A stretch of 64,000 bases of DNA from contig NZ_CANMRQ010000001.1 of assembly GCF_947500325.1 (NCBI RefSeq), positions 1 to 64,000 of the forward strand. The letters run 5' to 3'. The position numbers and the translations under genes are program-made. Source of the DNA: an uncultured Lacinutrix sp. (GTDB taxonomy: Bacteria > Bacteroidota > Bacteroidia > Flavobacteriales > Flavobacteriaceae). Position 1 is the first letter of the stretch; each line of letters begins with the position of its first letter. Positions 21,769 to 44,510 of this stretch are shown piece by piece. The notes under the pieces are model-generated. The model did not search any database. It saw only the letters and a list, made by a program, of their open reading frames with translations, and had not been told where the DNA came from.

Positions 21769-24700
21769 ATGGAAAAAACTAATATAGATAACAACATTCA
21801 GCTAGACGGCGGCACCTATGAGATTATTCAAGGGCGTTTACAAAAACAAAAAAGTGAACTGCTTTCAAGGCTTTCTCAATTAAACGATGCTCGTAAAAAC
21901 GTTTTTGGTAGTGTTGAAACCAAGCTTATTGCTAACAACCGTATTAATACAGAAAATAACTGTATAGCAAGAGATATTGTTACCATAGGTGATACCTGTT
22001 TTTTTGGATATAATGTACACTTTGGGTTGCGAACCGATATCACACTTGCAGATGTGTTTAGTGTGTATACATACGATAACGACCATTTTACCATTCAGTC
22101 TTTAGGCCTAATAGAAGACCCTACGTTTATAAACGATTTTACTAATTTATATAAGTATTATAGAAATACCATTTTCTCAAAATTTGCCATAGTTGGCAAT
22201 TACTTACATATGGTATTTCAGTTAAGCGACAGTATTACTGATATAAAAACCTTTAAATGGCTTATCAACGATGGTGCACTTCAGTATATTGATAACCGTA
22301 GCGAACATGAATTTAAATTCCCTAATCAGCATGAATTTAATTGGGTAGAATCTACCAGAGATAATCATGTGTATGGAAAACACTCGCACATATCAATATT
22401 AGACAAAGTTTTTGTAGAAACCATTGGTGGAGATTTAACTATTAAAATAGAAGATAATACAGATGATGGTAAAGGCATTTACGATGAATCTGTACTACAT
22501 CCAGACCAAACCCTAGATGATGGACAATATAAGTACGCAGACCTAGGTAATTTAATAGCTCTAGAAATTAAACCCTTTCAAGAGCAATCAAGATATTTTG
22601 TATACAATCATAAAATACAAGAAGTAAAAAAAATAGATAGTATTGGAGATGCCTGTATACTATTACCAGACGATCAAGGTATTATTTTTGCAGATGGTTA
22701 TTACTTACAATCTGGTGATTTTAAGTTATTTGATAATAGTGTTTCTAACGTTAAATTCAAAAAAAAGGTAAGCTCTCCTAATGGTGAAGATTTCCTATAT
22801 GTGTTTTACGAAAGTAAAAAAGGCTTGTATGTATTGATGTCTTATAATGTTATAGACCAGCAAGTAAAAACACCTATTATTTGTAACGGTTACACTATTC
22901 TTAATGATGGAGAATTATGCTACTTTAAAACCGAAGACGAACAAACAAAACACCATGTTATTCAAATATGGCAAACACCATTTATTAAAGGCGATGTTAT
23001 TCCTTCAGAACATACAGACAGTCTATTATATAAAATAGGAAATAAAGATATTGTAAAAGCAATGGCAGAATGCCAAGCTTTAATAACACTTTTAAATAAA
23101 GAAGATAGTTACGACGGCTTATATGATGATATTGCTAAATCCTCAAGCGATATTTTAAATAGTTACTATTGGATAACAGAACCAGAAACATTTCTTGTTA
23201 ACCAACCCTTAACAGAATTAAATGAAGCAGCCAATGCAGCTATTGATGAATTTGAAAAAGTAGTACAACTACGTAAAACAGCTGCAAATATTACTAAAGA
23301 TACACAAGCTAAAGCAGATGGTGTTTTTGGAAAAATTAAAAGTAGTACGTTTAAATCTATTGAAGATTTTGTACTTGTTTTATCACAGTTACGAACACTT
23401 AGAGGAGAAGTTATTGGTTTAAATGACATTCGCTATGTCGATACTGCATTTATAAGTGCATTAGAAGCCGAAATTATAGCGCAAAACGATAAAATTTCTG
23501 AACGTTGCGTACAGTTTTTACTAAATGATAAAGCACTTCTACCTTACCATAATCGTGTTGCTGAAAAAGAGACAGAATTAGAAGGCATAAAGAAAGTTGT
23601 TGCAGCTAAAAAATTAGAAGAAGAAGTCAATCAAATTGCTGCCGATTTAGAAATGCTCATCGATATCGTTTCTAATTTAGAAATTGAAGATGCCTCGCAT
23701 TCCACACAAATTATTGATAATATTTCATTGATTTTTGCAACCATTAATCAACTAAAGGCAGGCTTAAAAAACAAGTTAAAGTCCTTAGGTGAAAAAGAAG
23801 CTTCTGCAGAGTTTGCTTCACAATTAAAGCTAGTAGATCAAAGCATTATCAATTACTTAGATATTGCTGCTACACCAGAAAAAACAGATGAGCTCTTAAA
23901 TAAAGTCTCTGTACAATTAGAAGATTTAGAAGCTAGGTTTGCAGATTTTGAAGATTTCATTACTCAAATTATTGAAAAAAGAGAAGAAGTATATAATGCT
24001 TTCGAAGCCAGAAAAAATAGTCTAGTTGAAGCCAGAAACAAAAAAACAATAACTTTAGAAGCAGCTGCAAATCGCATTCTTAAAGGTGTTACTAAAAAAG
24101 CACTAAGCTTTAAAACTACAGCTGAAATTAACGGTTATTTTGCATCCGATTTAATGATTAATAAGCTTCGCGATATTATCACTAATCTTAAGGATTTAGA
24201 TGATGCAGGGAAAGCTGAAGCTATTGAAACAGGATTAAAAGTAGCTAAAGAAGATGCGGTTAGAAAATTAAAAGATACCCAAGATTTATACGAAGATGGC
24301 GAAAATATTATCAAACTTGGTAAGCACAGGTTTGGCGTTAATAAACAACCATTAGATCTTACCATTGTTTATAAAGATAATACTTTAAAGTACCATCTAA
24401 CTGGTACAGATTTTTATCAGTCTATTGAAAATGATACTTTAATTAAGTCTCAAAAATATTGGAATCAAGAATTGGTATCAGAGAATAAAGAGATCTATAG
24501 ATCTTCATATCTTGCCTATAAACTATTTATAAATGCCTCTAATAATCTAAAGCAACTAAGCGATACAGAATTACTTAAACTTGTAAAAAGTGAAAGTAGT
24601 AAAAACTATTCCGAAGGTTATATTAAAGGAGTTCATGATGAAGATGCTACCAAAATTTTAAAAACGTTAGTTAGCAAACATCATGATTTAGGATTATTGC

Positions 24701-26658
24701 GTTATCAATCTATAGTGAGAGCATTTGGGCAATTTTTTTGGAACACTTTAGACAATGAAAACAGAGCGTCTTGGAATCAAAAAATAAAAGCTTCAGGTGA
24801 AGTGCTATCTGCTTTTCCAGATAGCAAAGAATATGAAATTTTTGTAGAGATCTTAAGTCAAGAATTGCAAGATTCTGTGTTTTATGATGTCATTTCTAAA
24901 CACTATAAAGGGCAAAAAAATACACTTGAATTTGAAACAGCATCCTATTTATTTGATGAATTACAAAACAACGATACGTTTTGTAGTAGCAAAACAGCCC
25001 AAGAGTTATTTGATAACTTTACAAAAGCCTTAAAAAATAAAAAAGCAATTACCGCTTTTAAAACCTCTCTTAAAACCGCTTTAGGAGATAAAAATATTAC
25101 AATCAATGCGGTGCAATTAGCTGTACAATGGGTAAGCTCTTTTATAAAATCACAGGCTCCAGAGTATATAGATTACATTTATGAAGTTGTTGCACTTATG
25201 CTATTTAAAAGTGACACAAAACTAGAAACTATTCAAGTAAATGCTACTTTAATTATTAAAGATTTAAAAGGAAGTCATACCACAATTAGTGAAGGCGATT
25301 TTCAATTTAATTACCATAATTTTATAAATCAATTACAACACTTTGCTTCTGTAGAAGTACCAGCATATAATGCCTATCGTGAAGCAAAACACACAGTTAC
25401 CGAAACTCTAAAAGAAGAACTAAAATTGGAAGAGTTTAAACCTAGAGTACTCTCTTCTTTTGTGAGGAATAAGCTTATAGATCAAGTGTATTTACCTTTG
25501 TTTGGCGATAATTTATCCAAACAATTAGGAAGTGTAGGTGATAACAAGCGTACAGATCGTATGGGTATGCTATTGCTTATATCGCCTCCTGGTTATGGTA
25601 AAACAACCTTAATGGAATATATGGCAAATCGTTTAGGACTCATATTTATGAAAATAAATGGTCCAGCAATAGGTCATGACGTCACTTCTGTAGACCCGCT
25701 AACAGCAAAAAATTCTGCAGCCCGAGAAGAATTGAACAAGCTTAATCTTGCTTTTGAAATGGGTAATAATGTGATGTTATATTTAGATGACATACAACAT
25801 TGTAACCCAGAGTTTTTACAAAAATTTATATCACTTGCAGATGGTACACGTAAAATAGAAGGGATTTATAATGGTAAACCAAAAACTTACGATTTACGTA
25901 GTAAGAAGTTTTGTGTGATTATGGCAGGGAATCCATATACAGAAAGTGGTGATAAGTTTCAAATTCCTGATATGTTAGCAAACCGTGCCGATATTTATAA
26001 TTTAGGTGATATTATTGGAGATACAGCAGATTTATTTAAGCTAAGCTTAATTGAAAACTCACTAACTTCTAATCCTATTCTTCATCAATTGAGTAGCAAA
26101 TATTTTGAAGATATTTATCAATTAATAGAAGTTGTAGAATCTGGAAATCCTGCTAATTTAGAACTTAAAGGCAACCATACCAAACAAGAAGTTCAAGATT
26201 ATTTGGCAGTATTAGATAAAGTAGTTGCCATTCGCAATACGGTATTAAAGGTAAACGAAACTTATATTAAATCTGCTGCTATGGATGATAGTTACCGTAT
26301 AGAACCTTCATTTAAATTGCAAGGATCTTATCGTGATATGAACAAATTGGTGGCCAAAATAGTGCCAATAATGAATGATAAAGAGCTACAAACTCTTTTG
26401 CTATCACATTATGAAAACGAATCGCAAACCCTTACCAGTGCTGCCGAAGCCAATTTATTAAAATATAAGGAGCTTACAAGTTCTATAGATACTATTGAAA
26501 TTGAGCGTTGGCAAACCATTAAAGATACGTTTGTAAAAAACAATAAGCTTAAAGGTTTTGGAAATGAAAATGAAATGGCGCAAGTACTAAATCAAATGAT
26601 GCAATTTAGCGAGCATTTAGAAGGGATCCAGAATGTTTTAAAGAAAGGTTTAAAATAA
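21769..26658 (+). CDS. giant (1629 aa) protein with C-terminal AAA+ ATPase domain (AAA_5/MoxR/dynein-like)
   Basis: Walker A ISPPGYGKTT (about aa 1267), Walker B MLYLDD, sensor region VIMAGNPYTE...ANRADIYNLG; coiled-coil mid-region. Confidence 0.7.
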   Translation: MEKTNIDNNIQLDGGTYEIIQGRLQKQKSELLSRLSQLNDARKNVFGSVETKLIANNRINTENNCIARDIVTIGDTCFFGYNVHFGLRTDITLADVFSVYTYDNDHFTIQSLGLIEDPTFINDFTNLYKYYRNTIFSKFAIVGNYLHMVFQLSDSITDIKTFKWLINDGALQYIDNRSEHEFKFPNQHEFNWVESTRDNHVYGKHSHISILDKVFVETIGGDLTIKIEDNTDDGKGIYDESVLHPDQTLDDGQYKYADLGNLIALEIKPFQEQSRYFVYNHKIQEVKKIDSIGDACILLPDDQGIIFADGYYLQSGDFKLFDNSVSNVKFKKKVSSPNGEDFLYVFYESKKGLYVLMSYNVIDQQVKTPIICNGYTILNDGELCYFKTEDEQTKHHVIQIWQTPFIKGDVIPSEHTDSLLYKIGNKDIVKAMAECQALITLLNKEDSYDGLYDDIAKSSSDILNSYYWITEPETFLVNQPLTELNEAANAAIDEFEKVVQLRKTAANITKDTQAKADGVFGKIKSSTFKSIEDFVLVLSQLRTLRGEVIGLNDIRYVDTAFISALEAEIIAQNDKISERCVQFLLNDKALLPYHNRVAEKETELEGIKKVVAAKKLEEEVNQIAADLEMLIDIVSNLEIEDASHSTQIIDNISLIFATINQLKAGLKNKLKSLGEKEASAEFASQLKLVDQSIINYLDIAATPEKTDELLNKVSVQLEDLEARFADFEDFITQIIEKREEVYNAFEARKNSLVEARNKKTITLEAAANRILKGVTKKALSFKTTAEINGYFASDLMINKLRDIITNLKDLDDAGKAEAIETGLKVAKEDAVRKLKDTQDLYEDGENIIKLGKHRFGVNKQPLDLTIVYKDNTLKYHLTGTDFYQSIENDTLIKSQKYWNQELVSENKEIYRSSYLAYKLFINASNNLKQLSDTELLKLVKSESSKNYSEGYIKGVHDEDATKILKTLVSKHHDLGLLRYQSIVRAFGQFFWNTLDNENRASWNQKIKASGEVLSAFPDSKEYEIFVEILSQELQDSVFYDVISKHYKGQKNTLEFETASYLFDELQNNDTFCSSKTAQELFDNFTKALKNKKAITAFKTSLKTALGDKNITINAVQLAVQWVSSFIKSQAPEYIDYIYEVVALMLFKSDTKLETIQVNATLIIKDLKGSHTTISEGDFQFNYHNFINQLQHFASVEVPAYNAYREAKHTVTETLKEELKLEEFKPRVLSSFVRNKLIDQVYLPLFGDNLSKQLGSVGDNKRTDRMGMLLLISPPGYGKTTLMEYMANRLGLIFMKINGPAIGHDVTSVDPLTAKNSAAREELNKLNLAFEMGNNVMLYLDDIQHCNPEFLQKFISLADGTRKIEGIYNGKPKTYDLRSKKFCVIMAGNPYTESGDKFQIPDMLANRADIYNLGDIIGDTADLFKLSLIENSLTSNPILHQLSSKYFEDIYQLIEVVESGNPANLELKGNHTKQEVQDYLAVLDKVVAIRNTVLKVNETYIKSAAMDDSYRIEPSFKLQGSYRDMNKLVAKIVPIMNDKELQTLLLSHYENESQTLTSAAEANLLKYKELTSSIDTIEIERWQTIKDTFVKNNKLKGFGNENEMAQVLNQMMQFSEHLEGIQNVLKKGLK

Positions 26659-26790: not shown

Positions 26791-27399
26791 TCAACTATAT
26801 ACTACTGAAGTATTCGTTATATGATTTTCTATAATATGTGCGCCTAAATTTAACCAAAGTTCTGCTCTATCTAAAACCCAAGCATCTGCACTTACAACAA
26901 TGTGATTGCTTTCTGCTAAGATTTTATCTGGATTGTTTTCTAAAATAATGTCCCAATTAAAACTATGTTTTATGGCGATGTCTCTAAGTATGGTTTTAAG
27001 ACGACCACTATTAGACACAGGTCTATCAAACACCCAAATAACCTCATTTTCTTTTAAAAGATTACCCACTATAAGCAATGCGTTTTCTGTTTGTTGTACG
27101 CGTTTATAGGTACCATGAACACCAGACAAATCTCTATATGCAGCATCTAATCCTTTAAATAAGTAAGCACCAGAAAGTGCACTTTCTAAAATAATAAGCA
27201 AATTAAACCCATCTATAATAATGGTTTCAGAAGTTATATTCTTAAAAGGGATGACGTGGTTTTCTCGTCTTTCTATTTGTTGTTGCGAAGCACTCATACC
27301 TCTAACGGCTTGTTGTTGCCTTACGTTTAAACGATGCTTATTTCCAACGAGTTGCAATGATGATTTCTCGGCATAACCCCTAGAGAGCAAATAGTGCAT
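26791..27399 (-). CDS. hypothetical protein (possible PIN/NYN-like fold, very tentative)
   Basis: 202 aa; no confident motif. Confidence 0.35.
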   Translation of the reverse strand: MHYLLSRGYAEKSSLQLVGNKHRLNVRQQQAVRGMSASQQQIERRENHVIPFKNITSETIIIDGFNLLIILESALSGAYLFKGLDAAYRDLSGVHGTYKRVQQTENALLIVGNLLKENEVIWVFDRPVSNSGRLKTILRDIAIKHSFNWDIILENNPDKILAESNHIVVSADAWVLDRAELWLNLGAHIIENHITNTSVVYS

Positions 27400-27499: not shown

Positions 27500-28126
27500 T
27501 TACCTCCAGAAGGGTTTCTTTTTAGGTTTTAAATCCGCAACGTTTCCTGAAAAATATTTAACCTGAAAAACATTTGTATCTTCATATTGTACCTCCATAA
27601 GTTCTACTGGAAAAATACAACAATTTGTTTCTGAATTTACAACTTTTAAACACCTAAGTTTATAATTATTCGTCCTATTTATTTTTGCTCTATTAGCAAT
27701 TTTTACAATTAGACTAATAAGCTGTTTATGGTTACTTATTATTAATGGATTAAAACATATAAGATATAAAAATTCGGCTAAAGCTTCATTTTTATCTTTA
27801 GATTTAAATAAGTTAGTATTATCATGGAAATAAAAATACCATTTCAAAGGATTGTTATCAATAGCAATATTTTTTTCAATTATAATCGGATCAAGTATAG
27901 AGTTATTATAAATACTAATTATTGCATTATTTTTTAAATGTAATAACTGATTTTGCTCAACCTTATGTCTTTTTAAATTCCGATTTAACTTTTTATATCT
28001 CCATTGAATAATTATACATAAATCTAATAATTCAATAGGCAAGTTATAATTATTATTCTTTTTATTCTCTTTTAATTTATGAGATAAAAATTGAAATAAA
28101 ATATCACTACAAGTAGATGTTTTCAT
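27500..28126 (-). CDS. hypothetical protein
   Basis: 208 aa, AT-rich, adjacent to tRNA cluster. Confidence 0.4.
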   Translation of the reverse strand: MKTSTCSDILFQFLSHKLKENKKNNNYNLPIELLDLCIIIQWRYKKLNRNLKRHKVEQNQLLHLKNNAIISIYNNSILDPIIIEKNIAIDNNPLKWYFYFHDNTNLFKSKDKNEALAEFLYLICFNPLIISNHKQLISLIVKIANRAKINRTNNYKLRCLKVVNSETNCCIFPVELMEVQYEDTNVFQVKYFSGNVADLKPKKKPFWR

Positions 28127-28143
28127 GGTATTAATTTTAAAAA

Positions 28144-28215
28144 GAGAGCAAGCAGGATTTGAACCTACAACCTCGGGTTTGCAACCCGCTATTTTTCCAG
28201 TTAAACTATTACTCC
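28144..28215 (-). tRNA. tRNA-Cys (GCA)
   Basis: manual cloverleaf: acceptor GGAGTAA/TTGCTCT (GU pairs), D GTTT/AAAT, anticodon loop TTGCAAA, T-loop TTCAAAT. Confidence 0.65.
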
Positions 28216-28229
28216 CCTATTTATATAAG

Positions 28230-28302
28230 TTGGATGCATGAGACTTGAACTCACAACCTCCTGCTTGAGAGGCAGGCGCTCTTCCAATTGAGCTAGCATC
28301 CA
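28230..28302 (-). tRNA. tRNA-Glu (CTC)
   Basis: acceptor TGGATGC/GCATCCA, D GCTC/GAGC, anticodon stem CCTGC/GCAGG loop CTCTCAA, T-loop TTCAAGT. Confidence 0.6.
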
Positions 28303-28309: not shown

Positions 28310-28381
28310 TCACGTAAGTAGGACTCGAACCTACAAATTTAGAAATGTTGCCTAATGTTTTTCCAATTAAACTATTACGTG
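28310..28381 (-). tRNA. tRNA-like gene with non-canonical anticodon loop (CAACATT; paralog of the tRNA-Cys unit)
   Basis: perfect 7-bp acceptor CACGTAA/TTACGTG, D GTTT/AAAC, T arm GTAGG-TTCGAGT-CCTAC; position 33 is A, anticodon ambiguous. Confidence 0.45.
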
Positions 28382-28394
28382 TTTTAAAAAAGTA

Positions 28395-28467
28395 AAGAAC
28401 GTATGAGATTCGAACTCACAACCTCAGGATTGTATGTCAAGCGCTCTTCCAGTTGAGCTAACGTTCT
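28395..28467 (-). tRNA. tRNA-like gene with disrupted anticodon stem (loop CATACAA; paralog of the tRNA-Glu unit)
   Basis: perfect acceptor AGAACGT/ACGTTCT, D GCTC/GAGC, T arm GTGAG-TTCGAAT-CTCAT; anticodon stem CTTGA/TCCTG pairs only 3 of 5. Confidence 0.4.
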
Positions 28468-28477
28468 TTACAATACT

Positions 28478-29833
28478 TTACCAATTTTCTTCTCTATAAT
28501 TCTTTAAAAGTTTACCAACAAATATATTATTATTAGTTAAAGATTCAATTATAGGATGAATAACTCTTGATGCTCCGTCTACAGGATCTAAAGGTGGAAT
28601 ATAACCTTGTTCATATTGCTTTTCTCTTAGCGATTCTATGGCTCCAGTTGATACCCAACCTACATCTACAGCATTCATGTAGATATTATAATCTTCATAT
28701 TGTTTCGCTGAAGTTCTGGTTAACATATTTAAAGCAGCTTTTGTCATATTTGTATGTGGATGAAAAACCGTTTTATTAGCATAACTAAATTGACCTTCAG
28801 ATGACGTGACATTAATAATAAATTTTTGTTCAAATCTTGATGCTTTGATAAGTGGTGTTAATTCTTTTATTAAAAAGTAAGGTGATATTTGATTAATTAA
28901 ATTAACTTCTACTAATTCATACATAGAAATTTCATCTAAAGTTGAATTCCAACTATTTTTAGTACTCAAGTCTACAGGCTGACCAAATCGATTAAGCTTC
29001 AAATCTATATCCTTTACAGATGCTAATGCTTTATCTTTTTGCATTAATGGTGTTTTGTTTTCAATAAGCTTTTGAGGCTCATTAAAATTTGACAATAGCA
29101 TTTGCTCTTTTTTAATTATTGGAATATAATATTGATCCGAATATTTAATAGTTTGAGCAGCATTATTTATTAATATATCTAAACTTTCATAATTAGATTT
29201 GTAATACTCTATAAATAATTCTACAGATTTTAAGTGTTTTAAATCTAGTCCATAAACTATTAAGTTTTTACTCCAAGTTTCATAATCCTTTTCTTCTTTA
29301 AATAGGTTCAAAGCAGAAGCAGGAAAACGTGTTGTCACCAAAACATTAGCATTACATCTTAAAAAACGCAATGCAGTGGCATAACCAATTTTAACACGAC
29401 CACCAGTAATAATTACATTTCTAGATGTTAAATCAGCCTTTTTAAAGCGATTTTCATAATTTATTTCTGAACAATCTGGACACAATCTACTATAAAAAGA
29501 ATGAACTTGATTATAAGATTTATTACACGAGTAACAGTTTTTAGGAATATTAATAGTTTGATAAAATTGTTCTTTTTGCTTTAAACCATCATACTCCGAA
29601 ACATTGTTTAATGCATTTTGAGCAATTTTAGAATTTTTCAGAATTTCTAAATCATGTCCTTTTTTAAATTTATAACTAGATGATCTATTCTGCTTTTTAG
29701 CTCTTTTATGAATTTTTGAAATCAAAGCCCCAAATTTTTGGTTATCTGGATTATCAAGAGGATTCTCTTTTAACTCAGTCAATACCTTTAGACAAGATTC
29801 CCATTCTTTAGATGTGAAATTATATTGGTCCAT
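28478..29833 (-). CDS. SDR-family oxidoreductase with N-terminal extension containing a CxxC...CxxC zinc-ribbon
   Basis: VIITGGRVKIGYATA Rossmann motif, NNAAQT, plus CYSCN...CPDC; 451 aa. Confidence 0.6.
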   Translation of the reverse strand: MDQYNFTSKEWESCLKVLTELKENPLDNPDNQKFGALISKIHKRAKKQNRSSSYKFKKGHDLEILKNSKIAQNALNNVSEYDGLKQKEQFYQTINIPKNCYSCNKSYNQVHSFYSRLCPDCSEINYENRFKKADLTSRNVIITGGRVKIGYATALRFLRCNANVLVTTRFPASALNLFKEEKDYETWSKNLIVYGLDLKHLKSVELFIEYYKSNYESLDILINNAAQTIKYSDQYYIPIIKKEQMLLSNFNEPQKLIENKTPLMQKDKALASVKDIDLKLNRFGQPVDLSTKNSWNSTLDEISMYELVEVNLINQISPYFLIKELTPLIKASRFEQKFIINVTSSEGQFSYANKTVFHPHTNMTKAALNMLTRTSAKQYEDYNIYMNAVDVGWVSTGAIESLREKQYEQGYIPPLDPVDGASRVIHPIIESLTNNNIFVGKLLKNYREENW

Positions 29834-29841: not shown

Positions 29842-30537
29842 TTACAAAAAAGGTTCTAAAAAACCTATTAGCGATTTATCGTATTTGGACCATCGTATAC
29901 CATGGCCACTTTTTATTCTTATTTCAAAAACAATTTCATGTTTGTAATGATAAAACGTATTCCACCATGTATGATTATCTATTATATTATTTATAATGCC
30001 TTTTACTTTATCTAATTTTTGTTGTGGAGAACCTTTAATTTCTCCCCAAAAGGAATCTTCTGTTCTATCAATATGTTTTTCCCAAGCACGAACACCAACA
30101 CTAATTTGCTTATTATAATGACTCAAGCTATTGTCTAGCATCTCTTTTTTGGTCATTGGCAAACCTTCTACAGTTTTTATTGTTGCGGGCGTTTGTCGTT
30201 GCCCCATTAATAAAAGAACATGCTCAAAAGACACGCTTTGTATTGTACTGCAAATTATGTTTTTATTTATTACGTCGGAGACAAAATCTCGTTTATTAAT
30301 TTCTGAAATTGCATGTTTAAAAAATGAAAAAGAACCTTCTAAATTAGGAGCTATTTCTTCTGAAAAATAAGGGAATTGTACATTTTTTGACACACCATAT
30401 TTATGAAAATTAATACAGTTCTTTGAAAAAACACGTAGATAGTCTTCATGAAAAAACATAGAATTAACTGTTAACCAATCTTTTGAAAAAAGATCTTTTG
30501 AATCTAATAGTAGTTGTGTTAATAGAGTTGCTTTCAC
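29842..30537 (-). CDS. hypothetical protein
   Basis: 231 aa, no motif recognised. Confidence 0.4.
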   Translation of the reverse strand: MKATLLTQLLLDSKDLFSKDWLTVNSMFFHEDYLRVFSKNCINFHKYGVSKNVQFPYFSEEIAPNLEGSFSFFKHAISEINKRDFVSDVINKNIICSTIQSVSFEHVLLLMGQRQTPATIKTVEGLPMTKKEMLDNSLSHYNKQISVGVRAWEKHIDRTEDSFWGEIKGSPQQKLDKVKGIINNIIDNHTWWNTFYHYKHEIVFEIRIKSGHGIRWSKYDKSLIGFLEPFL

Positions 30538-31592
30538 TTTTTTATATTATAAAAGTTATTTCTCATTTCATAAACGAGTTTATTTACTAAATCTAAATCA
30601 GGTCTATCTATTAATTGAGAATTATCATAAATAGCATCAAGTTCTTCTTTCATAGTTTCTGCGCGAGACACTAAATCGTCGTATTCAAATTCAGCATTTT
30701 TTATTGATAACAAAAAGTCTCTATCTGTTCTTCGAACATTAATTTCATTATGTAATCCTATTTCTTTAGCCATATGTAATAACCTAAACGTATGCATCAT
30801 GTTTTTTGCATCATAGTTTTTACTGTGAGAAATATTACTTTTATAACGTTCTTCATTTCTTTTTGCTACCCAATCCCAATATTCTTTATATTTTTTGCAA
30901 TAGGTTGAATACCCATCTACATTAAAATATAAAACGGCAATAGGTTTTTCAGATTTTGGTACAGAACTTAAACACACTTCATTTCCGTTTTCTCTAACTA
31001 TACCATTATAATTTAATTCTTCATTATAAAATAGATTATAACAATCTTTCATATGAGCTAGATTTACTAATCCACAATGTTTTGGATCTAAATTCTTTTT
31101 CTTTACAAAATCTTTAAACACTATAGATTCCTTTTCTTCTCTTACATAACAAAAATCTTCCACAGACTTTCTTTCTTTTTCAACAGGGTTTACAATTTTC
31201 TTGTTTAATCCTCTTGCTTTTTTTATTTGAGTAAATGCATAATTAGCAAAGGTGTTCTTACAAAGTTTAGATACAAAATCTTTCTTTTTAATAGTATCAA
31301 ATATTGGATCCTTATAAAGTATGCACTCCTTAGGAACATTTAATAGTTCCATAATATTTGGATTATTTTTAGAGAGTAATTCAATAAACTTTCCTAATTC
31401 ATAATAAGCGATATCGTTCGTTTCATTATTAATTTGACCTATATAATTAAGCGAGTAAAATTGTGCTTTTGGTAAAATAAAAACACCTCTTATATCAGTA
31501 TCAGAAGTGGCAGTATCTAAGCCATAAGCTCTACTGCCACTAATACTTTCTAATATTATCGATCCTGATTTTTTTAATTCTTCTATTGTCAT
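30534..31592 (-). CDS. Pol-beta-superfamily minimal nucleotidyltransferase (RNA-repair-associated type, tentative RlaP-like)
   Basis: GSRAYGLDTATSDTDIRGV (GS...DxD NTase motif); 352 aa; overlaps neighbours by 4 nt. Confidence 0.55.
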   Translation of the reverse strand: MTIEELKKSGSIILESISGSRAYGLDTATSDTDIRGVFILPKAQFYSLNYIGQINNETNDIAYYELGKFIELLSKNNPNIMELLNVPKECILYKDPIFDTIKKKDFVSKLCKNTFANYAFTQIKKARGLNKKIVNPVEKERKSVEDFCYVREEKESIVFKDFVKKKNLDPKHCGLVNLAHMKDCYNLFYNEELNYNGIVRENGNEVCLSSVPKSEKPIAVLYFNVDGYSTYCKKYKEYWDWVAKRNEERYKSNISHSKNYDAKNMMHTFRLLHMAKEIGLHNEINVRRTDRDFLLSIKNAEFEYDDLVSRAETMKEELDAIYDNSQLIDRPDLDLVNKLVYEMRNNFYNIKK

Positions 31593-32335
31593 TGTATTTC
31601 TTTTAAGAAGAATGCATTAAATTCTTCAGGATTCGGCTTTTTATTAATTAAGTCGTTTTTAATACTATTATTTTCTGTAACAATATCTCTAACTAATGTA
31701 ATTAAAGTGTTGCTAACAGGTTCTGTACTTTTTTCAATATGTTTACTTTTTAAATGAATTAAATCATTTAATATAGTATGGTATTTCTCATCAATTATTG
31801 GGTACAATTCCGTGAACAAAACTGGCGGAATAGTTTCGTTTTTATAAACCCAATTAGCACACAAAGCAGTTCTTATGGCGTAGAAAAAACTTTTTAGCGT
31901 CATTTTATCTGTATCTAGTGTTTCTTCAAAACGGTAGCTCATACTATGGTAATGATAAAAACCAGATACAGGATTAAAGTTGTTTTCTGCCAAAGTTCTA
32001 ATTTCTTTTAAAAAATCGCCATTCGCTCTATACACAATAGGAGAAAATAACCAGCCTAAAAAAGACGCATTAGATTTTGCTAATAATTTTAAAGCTTTGC
32101 GAAATTCCCAACCAGAGCCATCAAGATCGTCTTCTGTCATGAACTCAATAGTATCTTTTTGTTCCCAAAGGTTTAAATACCACTCTTTTTTATGTTTATA
32201 TACAAAACGGATATCGTAATCTGAATCTGGTGACTCAAATCCCCAAGCTCTACTTCCAGATTCTACCGCAAATAGTATGTCTATATTTTTGTCTTTCTCT
32301 ATTTCAGAAAGTTTTTCTAGTATTTTAGTTTTCAT
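31589..32335 (-). CDS. Pol-beta-superfamily minimal nucleotidyltransferase (paralog of 30534-31592)
   Basis: ESGSRAWGFESPDSDYDIRFV motif; 248 aa. Confidence 0.55.
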   Translation of the reverse strand: MKTKILEKLSEIEKDKNIDILFAVESGSRAWGFESPDSDYDIRFVYKHKKEWYLNLWEQKDTIEFMTEDDLDGSGWEFRKALKLLAKSNASFLGWLFSPIVYRANGDFLKEIRTLAENNFNPVSGFYHYHSMSYRFEETLDTDKMTLKSFFYAIRTALCANWVYKNETIPPVLFTELYPIIDEKYHTILNDLIHLKSKHIEKSTEPVSNTLITLVRDIVTENNSIKNDLINKKPNPEEFNAFFLKEIQ

Positions 32336-33779
32336 TTTTCTTTAAATTTTTAAGATCTAGCATAATAGCTTCTCTATTAAATCCATCCAACTGTTTTTCG
32401 TAACATTTATCTAAGATATTTTTAAATTTTTTAGATGGCTTTAATCCTAAATCGATTAAATCTCTACCTAAAACTACAGGTTCAATTTTTCTTTCTCCAA
32501 ACTTTTTAAATAGCTCAAAGCATTTTTCGGAAGTTTCATGTCTATCTAAAATAACATTCCTTCCTGTTCTACCTGCAGAATCTGCTTTACTTTGCCAGCC
32601 TAAGATATCCAGTCTACACTTATTATGTAATCGTTTCCATGCAGCATCTTTTGCTTGAGAACGAAATAACTGACCAGGCATCATATGTAAACCTACAATT
32701 GTTTTTACTTTATTAATTAAATCTTTATCATTAGTTAAACGCATTAAAAAAGCTTCAGCTATTTTAATACCCGCAACGTCATGTCCATGAGCTTTTAAAT
32801 CTGGAGTTGTTGTAGAAGGTTTTCCAACATCATGTAATAATGCTCCAAACATATAAGCAAGCTTCCATTTTTCAGGAATTAAATGTCTTAATTTAGCAGC
32901 ATTGTCCAGAACCATTTTTGTATGAATCCATACATCGCCTTCAGGGTGCCATACTGGGTTCTGAGGACAACCGATTAAATCCTTTAATTCAGGAAAGTGT
33001 ATTAACCATCTTGAATCTTTTAAAAAATCTAGACCTATTGATGGTTTATCTGCTTTTAATAATAATTTTTCCCACTCAACAAAAACACGTTCTCTAGGCA
33101 ATTCAGAAAATGTATTTACCATTGATTGACATAAAGTCATTGTTCTTTTTTCTACTTCTCTTCCCTTTCTTGGCAATAATTGCATAATACGCAAGACTCT
33201 TAATGGGTCTTCAATAAAAGTATTTTTATCTGTTGCTTTTATTATTCCTTTTTTTAAATCCTCTATACCATTAAAAGGATCAACAATTCTGCCATTATGT
33301 AAATTTAAATACATACTGTTAATTGTTAAATCTCTTCTTTTTCCGGCTTCTTTAGGTGTCATTTCTTGATCTAATTCAATTTCAAATCCTTTATGTCCAA
33401 TTCCAATTTTATTTTCTCGTCTTGGAATAGAAATATCTATTTCTATATTATCTATTGTTGTTTTAATGACACCAAATGATTTCCCTACTAAATTACATGG
33501 TATATTTAATTCTTCAATTAAAACAACTAATTGAGGATAAGACAAACCGTAAACTTCAATGTCGATATCTTTTAGAGGTAATTTTTTTATACTATCTATA
33601 ACTGCTCCTCCAATTAACATTGCAATTCCGCCTTGTTCTTCTATTTCTTTTAATAAGTTTTTAAAGTTTTCTTCTTTAAAGACTTTATTTCTAAGGCTTT
33701 CAATATTCTTCATAATTTTTTCGCTGTTAAATAATCTAAGATTTCTATATATACTTATTTTCAATAATAGAGTGAGCAA
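32325..33779 (-). CDS. CCA-adding tRNA nucleotidyltransferase-like protein with C-terminal HD phosphohydrolase domain
   Basis: head motif GGAVID...DIDIEV, HD motif LLHDVGKP; 484 aa. Confidence 0.7.
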   Translation of the reverse strand: MLTLLLKISIYRNLRLFNSEKIMKNIESLRNKVFKEENFKNLLKEIEEQGGIAMLIGGAVIDSIKKLPLKDIDIEVYGLSYPQLVVLIEELNIPCNLVGKSFGVIKTTIDNIEIDISIPRRENKIGIGHKGFEIELDQEMTPKEAGKRRDLTINSMYLNLHNGRIVDPFNGIEDLKKGIIKATDKNTFIEDPLRVLRIMQLLPRKGREVEKRTMTLCQSMVNTFSELPRERVFVEWEKLLLKADKPSIGLDFLKDSRWLIHFPELKDLIGCPQNPVWHPEGDVWIHTKMVLDNAAKLRHLIPEKWKLAYMFGALLHDVGKPSTTTPDLKAHGHDVAGIKIAEAFLMRLTNDKDLINKVKTIVGLHMMPGQLFRSQAKDAAWKRLHNKCRLDILGWQSKADSAGRTGRNVILDRHETSEKCFELFKKFGERKIEPVVLGRDLIDLGLKPSKKFKNILDKCYEKQLDGFNREAIMLDLKNLKKNEN

Positions 33780-35105: not shown

Positions 35106-36568
<1,463 letters not shown>

Positions 36569-37577: not shown

Positions 37578-38360
37578 TTATTTTAAAGAAAAATAATTAT
37601 GTAAAGCTTTAAAAATGGATTTTACATTGGTATTTGGGTAGAACCCAGAACTGTTTATGCAATTAACTTCAACTATTTTCCATCCATTATTGGTTAAGCC
37701 TATATCCATAACAAAAGCATCAGCGATATTAAAAACAGCTATCATTTCTTTTGCAAAGGCAATGCCTTCAGGCGCTACATTTAATTCAAATAATACGTTT
37801 TCATTAAACTTATAATAACCAGCATCTACTATTTGTTTACCAACAATCCAAAGTCTAGCTTCCTTTAAAATTTCTTGTGGCTTTGAAATTTGGATAAGTG
37901 TATTTTTATTCAAATTTTCTGAAGCTTGACTTTCCAAAGCTTCGTATACATAATCAGACCAAGATGATTGATTAAAAACTTTACCCGTAAAAACCTTTGC
38001 ATCTCTATAAGGCTTAATAAATAGCTTAGAATTAGCTTTCCAATTAATCTTATCGGTCAATTTTAGAACTTGAAAATTATAATTAAGTGTATTACTCTTA
38101 TAGTGTTTAGAGTAAATTTCAAATAAGTGATTATTGCCATAAAATGAATTGGGCGACCAATCTTTATATTGTAGCGCCAAACGTGCTAATCGTACTGAAC
38201 CATAAACGAATATATCCTTACGGTTTGTTTTTAGTTCTAAATGTTTAGTTTCTTTTAGAACCTCAATAGTTTCATAAGGATAGTTTAACGTATCTAATGC
38301 TTCATATACTCTATCATGATCTGGATCTGAGTATATATTTGATTGAATTAAAAAATACAT
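37578..38360 (-). CDS. hypothetical protein, possible ATP-grasp-like C-terminal fold
   Basis: 260 aa; weak ATP-grasp-like C-terminal pattern (DIGLTNNGWKIVEVN). Confidence 0.35.
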   Translation of the reverse strand: MYFLIQSNIYSDPDHDRVYEALDTLNYPYETIEVLKETKHLELKTNRKDIFVYGSVRLARLALQYKDWSPNSFYGNNHLFEIYSKHYKSNTLNYNFQVLKLTDKINWKANSKLFIKPYRDAKVFTGKVFNQSSWSDYVYEALESQASENLNKNTLIQISKPQEILKEARLWIVGKQIVDAGYYKFNENVLFELNVAPEGIAFAKEMIAVFNIADAFVMDIGLTNNGWKIVEVNCINSSGFYPNTNVKSIFKALHNYFSLK

Positions 38361-40316: not shown

Positions 40317-40560
40317 AAATAGGAACACCTTTTACCTATTATTTTTTTAAAGACGAAGAGTAATTATCTTGTACCCTTTCGGGCAGCAAGTCGTAAATTT
40401 ATAGGAACTCTATATGTCTTTTATGACGAAGCGTAAATTAACCTCAAGCTCTTTCGAGCTCTGGAATCGAACCAGATTATAGGAACGCTTTGTGTCTTTT
40501 ACTAACGGAAAGTAATTTCTCCAATGAATGTTATAGGAACTTTCTGTGTCAGTAATTTAA
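40317..40560 (-). repeat. four degenerate tandem units beginning ATAGGAAC (minus strand GTTCCTAT), some carrying tRNA T-arm remnants
   Basis: units start near 40320, 40400, 40477, 40532; unit 2 contains CTGGTTCGATTCCAG on the minus strand. Confidence 0.5.
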
Positions 40561-40563
40561 TTG

Positions 40564-40676
40564 TAGTCCAGGTGGGACTCGAACCCACGACACACGGATT
40601 ATGAATCTATACAGGAACTTTTTTTTGCTGAAGGCGAAAAGTATTTTCGTTGCTCTACCTTCTGAGCTACTGGACT
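40564..40676 (-). tRNA. aberrant tRNA-like gene (113 nt) with perfect acceptor/D/T arms but a 46-nt insertion in the variable region and a non-canonical anticodon arm
   Basis: acceptor AGTCCAG/CTGGACT, D GCTC-AGAAGGTA-GAGC, T GTGGG-TTCGAGT-CCCAC; anticodon region ACGAAAATACTTTTCGC. Confidence 0.4.
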
Positions 40677-40810
40677 ATTTTTTTATTATGTTAAAGAACG
40701 TTGTACCTCTTACCAGATTCGAACTGGTACTTTCACATAACGTGAACAGATTGACTCTAAATGCGCTTCCCTACTATAATTTCGGTGCTTCTGCAAATTC
40801 TATTCGATAG

Positions 40811-41933
40811 CAAGCTTGTCACTAACGACATATTCAATCACTCCGTGGCTACGATTAAAAGTCTTTTACCACAGCTCTTCCTTTTAAGCTAAAGAGGCCT
40901 AATATTTTAAAAAGCGTTCTGAGAATACCTCCGCTTATAAACAAGCTTTCCTAGAATTATAGTTTACACTTTCTCTAGTTTTCCACGTGCTTCTTATTGC
41001 TTAGAGAATTACGTACTTGTTCGATGCCTTAATACATTACAACTGTTCGGCAACTTAGACTTGACTTGCATAGTGACTTTTGTCACGCTTTGCAATTACA
41101 AGGGTTGGCTCCCTCACCATTTATAAGCGTCCTCTTTTGAGGCGGCTTATTAGAATGTTCACCGCAAGACAAAGGTTTGCGACCTCCATCTCCCCATATA
41201 TTACAATGGGTTTAGGCAACTACTAACTGCTGTAATGTTCGAAGTCTTTTGCTTTTTACTCACCAACTGAGCAGTATCAAATTATGGTTTAGATACTAGG
41301 AATCGAACCTAGAAATAAAGTTTTGACCTTGGAAAAGGGCTTCGAAAATGGCTTCGTAGATTTTAGCCTACAAAATACCAACCTTTTCCATGCGTGTTTC
41401 CCAACACACCGTATGTTTAGCTACCGAATAGTTTCCTATCGGGTACCTATAATACTGCAATACGCTCCGTTAAATTGGATGATCTATACGTAACCTATTA
41501 CTACAACTTTTCCTGTTAATGTCTCCATTTCAAGCCTAATTAAATGTTAGCTATAAACCCTTATTTACCTCAGCGGTTGCCCCTTGTAAATAGAAATTTA
41601 TGTTAGTTGCTTGCTTACCTGTACTATACTCAAAAGAATACAGTCTCCATTTGCAGTGTCTGCAAATAGATTTATCCTTGTTACCAAGTTTATCTATGGA
41701 CGATAAGCCGCCCCATTATTTATAATAAATAATGATTTCTTTATATATAGAAGCTATAAATTTTCAGCTTCTTTTAATTTCAATGAACGTTTTTATTAAA
41801 CTCCACCAGCTTCAAAATCTGGTGGAGTACTACTTATAAAGTCTGATTCCAAAAGACTTTTAATTAATTACTCTGCAAATATTTTACACTATTACGCAAT
41901 GTTTTTGCGTAGTTAAAATGATTTATGAAATTT
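40811..41933 (-). ncRNA. 1.1-kb ORF-free, GC-enriched, hairpin-rich block; candidate large structured RNA (strand uncertain), containing a tRNA-like T-arm/acceptor with encoded CCA near 41285-41318
   Basis: no ORF of 60 aa or more in six frames inside a gene-dense island; local GC visibly above flanks; many imperfect hairpins. Confidence 0.3.
41866..41906 (-). promoter_or_regulatory. shared operator/promoter module (third copy) upstream of RNA ligase
   Basis: ACTACGCAAAAACATTGCGTAATAGTGTAAAATATTTGCAG on the minus strand. Confidence 0.5.
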
Positions 41934-43521: not shown

Positions 43522-43779
43522 AATATTGACCGCGAAAGCGGTTATCTTTTTAGTTAAATAATTATGTTGTGGAATAAACTGGATTAGCTCGCTAATTTTT
43601 ATTTTTTTAGCTGTGCTCGTGAATGCAAAAGCATTTTAAACCAGTATCTTCCGGGCTTAACTCAATGAATTTTATTTCATTAAATAAGATTCGTTGAATT
43701 CGTAAACTCATTTCTACCGGACGTATAGACCTACCCTTCGACTCCGCTCAGGACATGCTTTGCTATTATTCCTTTTTTG

Positions 43780-43852
43780 GGGTGATTTCGGGACTCGAAC
43801 CCTATTCTTCTCATTCACAGTGAGACATTTTACCTGTTAAACTAAAACCACC
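43780..43852 (-). tRNA. tRNA-His (GTG)
   Basis: anticodon arm TCTCA-CTGTGAA-TGAGA; T-loop TTCGAGT; C73. Confidence 0.65.
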
Positions 43853-43883
43853 ATTTTTAATTCCCATGAAAATGGGAATCTTA

Positions 43884-43958
43884 GTTCTGACAAAAGGATT
43901 TGAACCTTTATCCACAAACGTATCAGGTTTGCACTTTACCAATTAAGCTATGTCAGAA
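43884..43958 (-). tRNA. tRNA-Ile (GAT)
   Basis: acceptor TTCTGAC/GTCAGAA; anticodon arm CAAAC-CTGATAC-GTTTG; T-loop TTCAAAT. Confidence 0.7.
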
Positions 43959-43963
43959 TGTTG

Positions 43964-44034
43964 TTAACCCAATAGGACTCGAACCTATACCTCAAGAGTC
44001 AAAGTCTTGAATGCTGCCATTACACCACAGGTTA
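43964..44034 (-). tRNA. tRNA-Gln (TTG)
   Basis: U1-A72; anticodon arm CAAGA-CTTTGAC-TCTTG; T-loop TTCGAGT. Confidence 0.65.
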
Positions 44035-44040
44035 ATTTTG

Positions 44041-44113
44041 TAAGCTTAATAGGACTCGAACCCATATTCCCAGAGTCGTATTCTGGAGTGTTATCCAATT
44101 ACACCATAAGCTT
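44041..44113 (-). tRNA. tRNA-Arg (ACG)
   Basis: acceptor AAGCTTA/TAAGCTT; D GTGT/ACAC; anticodon arm CCAGA-ATACGAC-TCTGG. Confidence 0.7.
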
Positions 44114-44118
44114 ATTTG

Positions 44119-44192
44119 TATCCTACCTCGGACTCGAACCGAGAAATCACAGCGCTTAAAACTGATGCCTTTTCCAATTTGGCCAGTAGGAC
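44119..44192 (-). tRNA. class-I-shaped tRNA with Leu-type anticodon TAA (short variable arm; T27-T43 mismatch)
   Basis: acceptor GTCCTAC/GTAGGAT; anticodon loop TTTAAGC; variable GATTT; A73. Confidence 0.5.
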
Positions 44193-44197
44193 ATTAG

Positions 44198-44271
44198 TAC
44201 AGGAAGAGAGATTTGAACTCTCAAAATCTTGTTTCTAAAACAAGCGCGTATGCCAGTTCCGCCATTCCTGC
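44198..44271 (-). tRNA. class-I-shaped tRNA with Leu-type anticodon TAG (short variable arm)
   Basis: acceptor GCAGGAA/TTCCTGT; anticodon arm CTTGT-TTTAGAA-ACAAG; variable ATTTT; A73. Confidence 0.5.
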
Positions 44272-44276
44272 ATTAG

Positions 44277-44350
44277 TTGAGATGTCAGGAATCGAACCTG
44301 AACCTTTCGCCTTATGAGAGCGATGCTCTACCTAGTTAAGCTACATCTCA
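44277..44350 (-). tRNA. tRNA with CAT anticodon (Met elongator or Ile-lysidine; not initiator-like)
   Basis: acceptor TGAGATG/CATCTCA; anticodon arm TCGCT-CTCATAA-GGCGA. Confidence 0.65.
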
Positions 44351-44355
44351 ATTTG

Positions 44356-44427: not shown

Positions 44428-44432
44428 ATTTG

Positions 44433-44504: not shown

Positions 44505-44510
44505 ATTTTG

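Follow-up and report, generated by a model that had tools for sequence, protein, structure and literature searches.

A conserved family of tRNA-shaped, probably non-decoding RNA genes linked to a zinc-ribbon SDR gene in Bacteroidota

Why would a bacterial chromosome keep tRNA-shaped genes whose stems are intact but whose anticodon loops look unfit for decoding? The question is raised by a 64,000-nucleotide (nt) stretch of an uncultured Lacinutrix sp. (contig NZ_CANMRQ010000001.1, positions 1 to 64,000; hereafter the window), in which four tRNA-shaped genes lie in tandem just downstream of a gene for a protein of the short-chain dehydrogenase/reductase (SDR) type. An initial annotation, made from the sequence alone, read the four as a tandem duplication of a [Cys, Glu] tRNA pair in which the second copies, here genes A and B, acquired odd anticodon arms. 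We find instead that all four, the odd pair included, are members of a single conserved family of tRNA-like RNAs whose structure is selected, and we consider it very likely that these RNAs are under selection, do not decode, and are tied to a set of protein genes. The finding is larger than the coordinates first noted: it is a Bacteroidota-wide module of tRNA mimics, a Zn-ribbon-SDR protein, a colicin-D-like tRNase, and an NYN nuclease.

The four genes and their link to the SDR gene

The genes are transcribed from the minus strand in the order A, B, 'Glu-CTC', and 'Cys-GCA', and have the following properties.

28394-28468, minus strand: gene A; ARAGORN call Val(tac); Rfam tRNA 49.3 bits, family model R1 81.7 bits; acceptor AGAACGT/ACGTTCT plus an extra A-1:T73 pair; loop CATACAA (A33)
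28310-28381, minus strand: gene B; ARAGORN call Cys(aca); Rfam 54.1 bits, R1 56.2 bits; acceptor CACGTAA/TTACGTG; D stem GTTT/AAAC; loop CAACATT (A33, T37)
28229-28302, minus strand: gene 'Glu-CTC'; ARAGORN call Glu-ctc; Rfam 67.3 bits, R1 89.3 bits; acceptor TGGATGC/GCATCCA plus T-1:A73; canonical-looking loop CTCTCAA on a tRNA-Asp-type stem, CCTGC/GCAGG
28143-28216, minus strand: gene 'Cys-GCA'; ARAGORN call Cys-gca; Rfam 55.3 bits, R1 61.3 bits; acceptor GGAGTAA/TTGCTCT with two G-U pairs, plus G-1:C73; loop TTGCAAA

All four exceed the Rfam tRNA gathering score (49 to 67 versus 29 bits), and their scores of 56 to 89 bits with the family model place their membership beyond chance; none encodes CCA. 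The peculiarities of A and B are as first described. Both acceptor stems are fully complementary, the D and T arms are intact, both loops carry A at position 33, and the anticodon stem of gene A (CTTGA/TCCTG) pairs at three of its five positions; that of gene B is A/U-rich and paired at all five, one of them a G-U. Reading the sequence for a rescue of U33 in A and B gave neither a shifted register with a better stem nor a canonical loop on the opposite strand. The minimum-free-energy folds of A and B lack the anticodon stem, and those of 'Glu-CTC' and 'Cys-GCA' come close to a cloverleaf. U73 is an identity element of tRNA-Cys, and 'Cys-GCA' is ill-suited to that role because it has C73, paired with G-1, in its place.

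Gene A is like 'Glu-CTC', with identical D stem, variable loop, and T stem, and gene B is like 'Cys-GCA'. The statement that all seven acceptor pairs differ between the supposed copies was too strong: four of seven differ between A and 'Glu-CTC', and three of seven between B and 'Cys-GCA' on both sides, with one further one-sided change (U-G to U-A). The idea of a tandem duplication with drifted second copies fails on the same comparison made across genera. Units within the window are 56 to 74% identical (A and 'Glu-CTC' 0.74, B and 'Cys-GCA' 0.65), and each is closer to an orthologue in another genus (0.75 to 0.88 overall) than to its neighbor: A to that in Winogradskyella locus L001 (0.83; 0.81 to L021), 'Glu-CTC' also to L001 (0.88), B to L002 (0.75), and 'Cys-GCA' to L003 (0.77). 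The paralogues are therefore old. The nearest relatives of gene B, in L002 and L003, have the loop CATCAAA, likewise with A33. Gene A is the orthologue of 'Asp-like' genes with the loop C(C/T)GTCAC in other genera; its stem reads CTTGA on the 5' strand where L001 has CAGGA, the 3' strand TCCTG being common to both, and this loss, uncompensated relative to the orthologues, points to relaxed constraint on the anticodon arm and not to design. Metagenome scans gave no match to the 5' half of B and, for the 5' half of A, one contig equivalent to the Aquimarina locus.

Homologues of the SDR number in the thousands at 59 to 80% identity in Flavobacteriia, Chryseobacterium, Saprospiraceae, and Cytophagia. 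In GTDB the SDR is carried by at least 314 species. We compared 84 loci, comprising the window, three close relatives, and 80 species-level genomes with the SDR; the carriers sampled include Kordia, Aquimarina, Chryseobacterium, Flavobacterium, Tenacibaculum, Dokdonia, and Saprospiraceae. tRNA-like genes lie downstream of the SDR gene on the same strand in all 84, and also in three further loci (87/87), and in one of the three, a Chondrinema locus, the two occur together without the genes for the tRNase-like protein (p231a) or the NYN nuclease described below. The SDR transcription unit has the tRNA-like genes at its 3' end, and their place there is obligatory. The first of them mostly begins 4 to 50 nt past the SDR stop codon (median 9 nt), although the first call is about 800 nt away in two loci, and units are separated by a median of 7 nt. 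Arrays have one to eight units, most commonly three, for a total of 302 genes, and a run of at least four T follows the last unit in 70% of loci versus 18% for inner units; in the window, 'Cys-GCA' is the final member and has a T-run directly after it. In one locus (L081, 11635-12089) three consecutive near-identical units with the loop CCACCAA lie about 200 nt apart, a recent tandem amplification within an array.

A conserved fold with a loosely constrained anticodon loop

The fold is strongly maintained throughout the family. Across the 302 genes, 96.9% of acceptor, 91.7% of anticodon-stem, and 97.9% of T-stem positions are paired, the T loop is canonical (TTCGA(G/A)T), the D loop is near-uniform (AAnTGGAA with G18G19), and TA at positions 8-9, the gene-level equivalent of U8-A9, is present in 84%. 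An alignment of homologous loci, suggested at the outset as a check on whether the stems are selected, revealed covariation and not random decay. It contains 36 non-identical members and 74 gapless columns, including positions -1 and 73; 96.8% of cells are paired, and two-sided changes occur at 18 of 22 pairs. The covariation score is 0.752, compared with 0.303 for shuffled alignments (0 of 500 reach 0.752) and 0.10 to 0.21 when partner columns are slid. All four stems covary, and the anticodon stem does so at all five pairs, with 97.8% pairing in this seed alignment. The -1:73 position (AU 12, GC 10, CG 2, UA 2, unpaired 10) covaries as well, which indicates an eight-pair acceptor stem.

Rates of change tell a similar story for the body of the molecule and a different one for the loop. 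In 18 non-overlapping pairs of related loci, the anticodon loop changed at 38 of 347 sites (0.110 per site) and the rest of the RNA at 137 of 3115 (0.044 per site), against a mean over pairs of 0.172 per site at third-codon positions of the SDR gene. The loop thus changes about 2.5 times faster than the body, and the body about four times more slowly than the SDR third positions, which argues for purifying selection on the body. The twelve closest comparisons, in which several loci recur, give 0.068 for the loop, 0.018 for the body, and about 0.073 for SDR third positions. No other part of the molecule is as loosely constrained as the anticodon loop. Within this loop, positions 35-36 change least and positions 32-34 and 37-38 most, whereas real tRNAs are near-invariant at 33-36. 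A few local bursts occur, as in Tenacibaculum (L053), where the loop is CAATCTC and two relatives with about 95% identity have CTGTCAC, a change at 3 to 4 of 7 loop positions versus 0 to 2 of about 60 elsewhere. We make no claim of positive selection on the loop, since its overall rate is below the third-codon rate.

These observations bear directly on the possibility that genes A and B, or the whole array, are decaying remnants of a duplicated Cys-Glu tRNA pair. The two anticodon-stem pairs that gene A has lost relative to its L001 orthologue, and the minimum-energy folds of A and B, are what such decay would produce. However, pseudogenes should lose pairing and change at the neutral rate, and here 96.8% of alignment cells are paired, covariation is strong, orthologues persist across genera, the body evolves at 0.044 rather than 0.172 per site, and the SDR gene accompanies the family without exception in 87 loci. 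We regard decay as extremely improbable, and the initial argument for selected structures stands, now on family-wide covariation in four stems. The A33 loops of A and B and the imperfect stem of A are the expected look of the least constrained region, with no special adaptation.

Are these then tRNAs that decode with unusual loops? The family shares with decoding tRNAs the cloverleaf and the nucleotides of the tertiary fold (U8, A14, G18G19, and T-loop TTCRA), and lacks two further hallmarks, a seven-base loop with U33 and identity elements that agree with a stable anticodon. The odd loop is not peculiar to A and B: among the 276 seven-base loops of the 302 genes, 46% are without U33. U33 is present in 54% of the family (A in 18%, C in 26%), compared with 94% of an internal control of 223 other tRNAs from the same loci, mostly from long accessory arrays. 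The D-arm motif TAGCTCAAYTGGAAGAGC was considered as a family marker and rejected, being common in phage tRNAs with normal loops; it serves as a second control, with U33 in 60 of 63 (95%) phage tRNAs that carry the identical D arm. The 302 genes carry 149 different loops, and in 26 genes (9%) the loop is 6 or 8 nt long. A pyrimidine occupies position 73 in 78% of the family, and a purine in 77% of the controls; a Watson-Crick -1:73 pair is available in 75%, and CCA is encoded in 24 of 302.

The apparent amino acid identities are no more consistent. All members are class I, including 20 'Ser(gct)' genes, and 'Ser' and 'Leu' types have no long variable arm; seryl-tRNA synthetase requires that arm for recognition and so could not recognize the 'Ser(gct)' members. 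Counterparts of 'Glu-CTC' in four other genera carry the loops CCACCAA, CTGTCAC, TCCGCAC, and TCATCAA on one unchanged anticodon stem, and near-identical bodies with different 'anticodons' are incompatible with a fixed amino acid identity. The triplets are strongly NNC-biased (C36 in 64%) and far from a complete decoding set. The commonest loop and stem, CCTGC-CTGTCAC-GCAGG, is what we take to be the bacterial tRNA-Asp anticodon arm, as in the Escherichia coli sequence, and suggests a tRNA-Asp ancestry for the family. A role as suppressor or recoding tRNAs was considered and rejected, as the loops form no consistent set reading stop codons.

We note that the good tRNA scores (Rfam 49 to 67 bits), the canonical loops of about half of the members (e.g., CTGTCAC, CTTCCAA, TTGCTAA, and CTCATAA), and the true 18-tRNA array in the same tRNA and RNA-repair island could be taken to indicate working elongator tRNAs with nuclease-resistant loops, a backup decoding set like the tRNAs of phage T5 or long tRNA arrays. 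The absence of U33 in almost half of the loops, the loops of irregular length, the 'Ser' and 'Leu' types with no long arm, the pyrimidine at 73 and its pairing with -1, the changing 'anticodons' of orthologues, and the NNC-biased, incomplete set together make this very unlikely.

A different possibility is that the array acts in cis, as punctuation, 3'-end, or stability elements of the SDR operon transcript that supply RNase P and RNase Z sites and a terminator, the excised RNAs having no function, much as mascRNA forms at the 3' end of MALAT1 or tRNAs punctuate mitochondrial transcripts. The median distance of 9 nt from the SDR stop codon and the T-run that ends 70% of the arrays accord with this, and an unconstrained anticodon loop is what it predicts. 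One unit would suffice, however, yet there are up to eight distinct units, each kept across genera. For RNase P and RNase Z, the acceptor/T minihelix with the elbow is enough, but here the anticodon stem covaries at five of five pairs and positions 35-36 are conserved, and the covariation of -1:73 indicates constraint on the mature RNA. A purely cis-acting role is therefore improbable.

Associated proteins and possible functions

The tRNA-like genes are part of a string of minus-strand genes. From low to high coordinate these are DUF434/DUF5616, a 208-amino-acid open reading frame (ORF), the four tRNA-like genes, the SDR gene, p231a, and two RlaP genes; the string continues with a CCA-adding-type enzyme, RtcB, an R2K ATP-grasp protein, a 610-amino-acid ORF, a 1.67-kb ORF-free gap, an Rnl2-type RNA ligase, an RNase H-like protein, and an 18-gene tRNA array. 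Features with coordinates are as follows.

26791-27399, minus strand: DUF434 + DUF5616 protein (COG2454), by Pfam
27500-28126, minus strand: 208-amino-acid ORF, beginning 17 nt past the last tRNA-like gene
28478-29833, minus strand: Zn-ribbon + SDR protein, 451 amino acids
29842-30537, minus strand: p231a, 231 amino acids, an N-terminal helical domain and a C-terminal BECR tRNase fold
30534-31592 and 31589-32335, minus strand: two RlaP nucleotidyltransferases (Pfam PF10127), accessory to RNA repair
32325-33779, minus strand: CCA-adding-type tRNA nucleotidyltransferase (PolyA_pol head and HD)
35106-36506, minus strand: RtcB RNA ligase, an accessory RNA-repair component
43778-45508, minus strand: 18-gene accessory tRNA array, L-array type

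The 22 tRNA genes and the repair enzymes of the window prompted the idea of a phage origin, which we rejected. Megablast and tblastn searches of INPHARED gave no match, nor did a search of IMG/VR with both flanking proteins, and an 'SDR family oxidoreductase' on a 604-kb chromosome contig of uncultured Lacinutrix sp. matches the window SDR at 100% identity; the window is thus Flavobacteriaceae chromosome. An exact look-up of the window SDR gave no entry.

In the 77 loci with at least 4 kb of upstream sequence, p231a is encoded in 70 and the DUF434/DUF5616 protein in 62, mostly just upstream of p231a; RtcB is present in 21, the two RlaP genes in 22 to 24, and Rnl2 in 11. The 208-amino-acid ORF, the CCA-adding enzyme (0 of 83 loci, and so only in the window's version of the cluster), and a DUF3686 ATPase are not conserved. 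The 208-amino-acid ORF has no Pfam, PHROG, PADLOC, or NCBIfam match and has homologues in 2 of 83 loci; 203-amino-acid ORFs are annotated at the matching place in L002 and L003. The DUF434/DUF5616 protein corresponds to COG2454, a predicted NYN-type PIN-like nuclease with a proposed role in tRNA maturation (PMC5499597); it had no match among PDB sequences. RlaP adds one or two nucleoside monophosphates to damaged RNA 3' ends (PMC12776372).

The N-terminal region of the SDR, about 130 amino acids, has four invariant cysteines, C100, C103, C118, and C121 (CxxC...CPxC), and the nucleotide-binding motifs TGGRVKIG and NNAA are recognizable, with a Thr at the position of the canonical YxxxK tyrosine. 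NCBIfam gave only generic SDR matches for the cluster proteins, PADLOC gave none for 10 cluster proteins, and the N-terminal domains of the SDR and p231a retrieved only weak Zn-ribbon-like noise from Pfam.

Because the SDR is the closest companion of the RNAs, they could be carriers for its chemistry: the 3' end would be (amino)acylated and the Zn-ribbon-SDR would oxidize or reduce the attached group, as glutamyl-tRNA reductase does on Glu-tRNA or FabG on acyl-ACP, with the acceptor end and body important and the anticodon irrelevant. The tie between SDR and tRNA-like genes, which persists in the absence of p231a and the NYN nuclease, agrees with such a role, as do the purifying selection on body and acceptor with a free loop, acceptor sequences that differ between units and are kept across genera, the CCA-adding enzyme in the window's cluster, and R2K ATP-grasp ligase genes nearby. 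Nonetheless, no known aminoacyl-tRNA synthetase identity set fits (73 is a pyrimidine and pairs with -1, and 'Ser' lacks the long arm), the conserved core has no gene resembling an aminoacyl-tRNA synthetase or acyltransferase, the canonical SDR catalytic Tyr is missing from its standard position, and the covariation of the anticodon stem would be left unexplained. We view a carrier role as unlikely.

p231a offers a possible connection to tRNA cleavage. The protein has no Pfam, PHROG, PADLOC, or NCBIfam match, but a profile of 25 members matches the CdiA toxic tip of Pseudomonas aeruginosa PABL017 (PDB 6D7Y) over its whole length (E = 3.3e-4), and by this profile match p231a has the BECR fold, colicin D subtype. 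The 6D7Y toxin is listed among the colicin-D-like BECR tRNases, with tRNA-Gln and tRNA-Pro as its targets and a catalytic histidine (PMC9086364), and the invariant p231a motif RAWEKHxGR (K154-H155) aligns with SKHAGRH of the toxin. Homologues of p231a also occur without an SDR or tRNA-like genes: one stands alone in Flammeovirga, and one in the planctomycete Candidatus Uabimicrobium (L087, 7001-7717) has the tyrosyl-tRNA synthetase gene on one side and the genes for a HIT-family protein and isoleucyl-tRNA synthetase on the other. The array is consequently tied most tightly to the SDR and less so to p231a.

Antitoxins of type III toxin-antitoxin systems are near-identical tandem repeats of RNA, and one could suppose that the tRNA-like RNAs are antitoxins of this style, tandem mimics that silence p231a as an anticodon nuclease until transcription stops, for example during phage infection. 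The colicin-D-type fold is encoded in the same operon, the array is tandem and lies at the operon end, and the natural inhibitor of colicin D is itself an immunity protein described as mimicking tRNA, to go by the title of Graille et al. 2004 as cited in PMC9086364. However, the p231a homologues with no adjacent tRNA-like gene, one of them in a housekeeping aminoacyl-tRNA synthetase context, and the 7 of 77 loci with an array but no p231a speak against an obligate pair; the units of the window, at 56 to 74% identity, do not resemble ToxI-like repeats, and there is no PADLOC match. We consider this reading quite improbable.

The explanation that we favor, whose overall chance of being right we put at about even, treats the RNAs as tRNA-mimic partners of the tRNA-directed proteins of the module. 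The array would be cotranscribed with the SDR operon, and either RNase P and RNase Z or the NYN nuclease of the module would excise its units. Aminoacylation and decoding would be prevented by the eight-pair acceptor, a pyrimidine at position 73, and a U33 that is often missing. The Zn-ribbon-SDR could be the binding platform and the colicin-D-like tRNase the enzyme that addresses the anticodon arm, and the RNAs may serve as bait or pseudo-substrates that display anticodon stem-loops, ancestrally those of tRNA-Asp, to anticodon-loop nucleases, either their own or foreign. Cleaved RNAs might be resealed by RtcB and RlaP, whose genes are often nearby. The bait mechanism as such we put forward only tentatively. 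The initial annotation had pointed to decoys or substrates for anticodon nucleases or adjacent repair enzymes, and as a direction this is upheld by the colicin-D-type tRNase fold upstream of the SDR and by RtcB, two RlaP proteins, the CCA-adding enzyme, and Rnl2 in the same gene string; the specific role of the RNAs as decoy, substrate, or scaffold is one that we infer.

Several considerations weigh against this explanation. Everything beyond a conserved structured RNA beside these genes is deduced from sequence comparison. The tRNA-like genes track the SDR and not the nuclease p231a, whose homologues can occur without either; p231a may be a housekeeping tRNA-related enzyme, neither toxin nor partner. 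Its match to 6D7Y is modest, and K154-H155 is only a candidate counterpart of the published catalytic residue H3372. RtcB and RlaP are encoded in less than a third of loci. With Thr in place of the catalytic Tyr, the SDR is a putative oxidoreductase whose chemistry and role a bait mechanism does not explain. A bait for loop nucleases should copy real loops, yet 46% have no U33, and a loop rate of about 0.6 of the third-codon rate suits relaxed constraint as well as an arms race.

If these RNAs are indeed tRNA mimics with protein partners, a bolder and more speculative extension, which we think probably goes too far, is a self-contained ribonucleoprotein system found widely among Bacteroidota. 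In it, a dedicated NYN nuclease would produce a set of tRNA look-alikes that cannot be charged, and the Zn-ribbon-SDR would be the platform that holds them. The anticodon arms of the look-alikes, free to evolve, would capture, sense, or absorb anticodon nucleases, whether the colicin-D-like protein of the module or toxins of competitors and phages, and baits that had been cut would be restored by RtcB and RlaP. Nucleases that attack tRNA are a major weapon in conflict among bacteria and between bacteria and phage, with immunity proteins, repair enzymes, and replacement tRNAs as the known defenses, to which a conserved operon-encoded set of tRNA mimics that goes with an SDR, a colicin-D-like tRNase, and an NYN nuclease would add a class of RNA component. 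The COG2454 and p231a families would gain concrete candidate substrates. Several carriers are cultured strains, among them Kordia algicida OT-1, Chryseobacterium gambrini DSM 18014, C. indologenes, and Flavobacterium pectinovorum. There is also a practical consequence, as gene finders report the family as tRNAs with odd anticodons (Sec/TCA, Cys/ACA, Ser with no long arm, or '???'), and such miscalls inflate or distort Bacteroidota tRNA sets and calls of codon reassignment.

Other features of the island are recorded here in their own right. The 18-gene array at 43778-45508 has canonical U33 loops, yet both of its tRNA-Leu genes (taa and tag) are 75 nt with no long variable arm; the Rnl2-type ligase and RNase H-like genes are just downstream (minus strand), and in Kordia similar arrays come directly after the SDR-linked tRNA-like genes. 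The 1.67-kb ORF-free gap between the 610-amino-acid ORF and Rnl2 contains a GOLLD-like large noncoding RNA (ncRNA; Rfam RF02032) at 40913-41390 (minus strand), which covers the full model (1-416) with E of about 1e-36 and 132 to 139 bits, short of the gathering threshold of 150, and has counterparts at the equivalent place in two related genera (L002, 725-1202; L003, 1109-1586). Known GOLLD RNAs come from phages and prophages, where they lie near tRNA islands (PMC12286853); the GOLLD-like RNA of the window is within a Flavobacteriaceae chromosomal island of tRNA and RNA-repair genes. R2K-clade ATP-grasp genes (RimK/CDC123-like peptide ligase; 37578-38360, minus strand, and equivalents in L002 and L003) flank the GOLLD region and RtcB.

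Directly 3' of the GOLLD-like RNA is an interrupted tRNA-like element of 112 to 113 nt (40564-40677, minus strand; L002, 1268-1379; L003, 1601-1713). It has normal acceptor, D, and T arms and about 60 nt in place of the anticodon arm, scores 48 bits with the Rfam tRNA model and 52 bits with R1, and receives no ARAGORN call; it could be a tRNA embedded in a GOLLD linker or a Y-RNA-like module. The motif RGTTCCTATAA or GTTCCTGTATAG occurs in at least five copies downstream of it (40320-40640, minus strand), and three isolated T-arm-like hairpins (GGTTCGAnTCC) are present in the same ORF-free region at about 40470, 40725, and 41310 (minus strand). Convergent on the tRNA-like module is a gene for a 1629-amino-acid protein (21769-26658, plus strand) with DUF3686 ('ATPase involved in DNA repair'), DUF7902, and dynein-type AAA_5 domains; it is absent from 83 related loci, has no PADLOC match, and may be a separate defense or repair gene. 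A WYL/WCX-domain regulator is divergently encoded just upstream of the module in Winogradskyella (L001, 5815-6843) and Kordia antarctica (L086, 4585-5598) and is a candidate ligand-sensing regulator of the operon. A scan for sigma-70 promoters showed no enrichment, although Bacteroidota promoters differ from the sigma-70 consensus.

Comparison with known systems

In the literature searched we found no description of an SDR-linked tRNA-like array, although an earlier mention is possible, and the family shares the defining features of none of the YrlA Y RNAs, the L-arrays, or the mitochondrial tRNA maturation platform. YrlA-type Y RNAs of the rsr-yrlBA-rtcBA operon (PMC4201824; bioRxiv 10.1101/312249) are, like the RNAs described here, operon-encoded, non-decoding ncRNAs with a tRNA-like module and a link to RtcB-type repair. 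In YrlA, however, a Ro-binding helix replaces the anticodon arm and the RNA acts with Rsr/Ro60, whereas the window family has a full cloverleaf with a covarying anticodon stem, a Zn-ribbon-SDR as its invariant protein neighbor, and one to eight distinct units per locus; no Ro/TROVE domain was found among the 20 ORFs scanned, a part of those in the window.

L-arrays, which are linked to RtcB and translational stress (PMC8421152), are likewise clusters of extra tRNA-type genes near RNA-processing and repair genes; a role as sponge for toxin RNases has been proposed for them, and they are coregulated with rtcB (PMC8421152). In L-arrays the anticodon loops are canonical (U33 in 94%), the D loops vary, some members are class II, and discriminators are purines, in contrast to the single, entirely class I family with an eight-pair acceptor and frequent loss of U33 that follows the SDR. 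The SDR-linked genes are thus not an L-array, whereas the 18-gene array at 43778-45508 does fit that description.

The tRNA platform of human mitochondrial RNase P (SDR5C1, TRMT10C, and the NYN nuclease PRORP; PMC8437803) similarly combines an SDR and an NYN-type nuclease with tRNA-shaped substrates from a polycistronic transcript. The bacterial SDR has its own Zn-ribbon, the likeness established for the two SDRs is that of a shared fold, and neither a TRMT10C-like methyltransferase nor a PPR domain was found among the scanned cluster ORFs; the parallel is an analogy. Compared with colicin D and CdiA-CT(PABL017) tRNases and their immunity proteins (PDB 6D7Y, 1TFK, and 5ZNM; PMC9086364), p231a is a cytoplasmic protein of 231 amino acids that has a helical domain fused at its N terminus and lacks both a delivery domain and a recognizable immunity gene, and the tRNA mimics next to it are RNAs and not protein. 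tRNA-Other of Bacillus cereus (PMC3399842) is also tRNA-shaped and non-decoding with a cellular role, but it is a single gene at the border of a genomic island and is unrelated to the window family in sequence and context.

Should the ribonucleoprotein bait system prove correct, it would do with RNA what immunity proteins do against tRNases, and bacteria would have in it a parallel to the animal-mitochondrial SDR-plus-NYN tRNA platform. By analogy, the closest setting for the family would appear to be that of tRNA-like ncRNAs encoded in loci of RNA repair or tRNase conflict.

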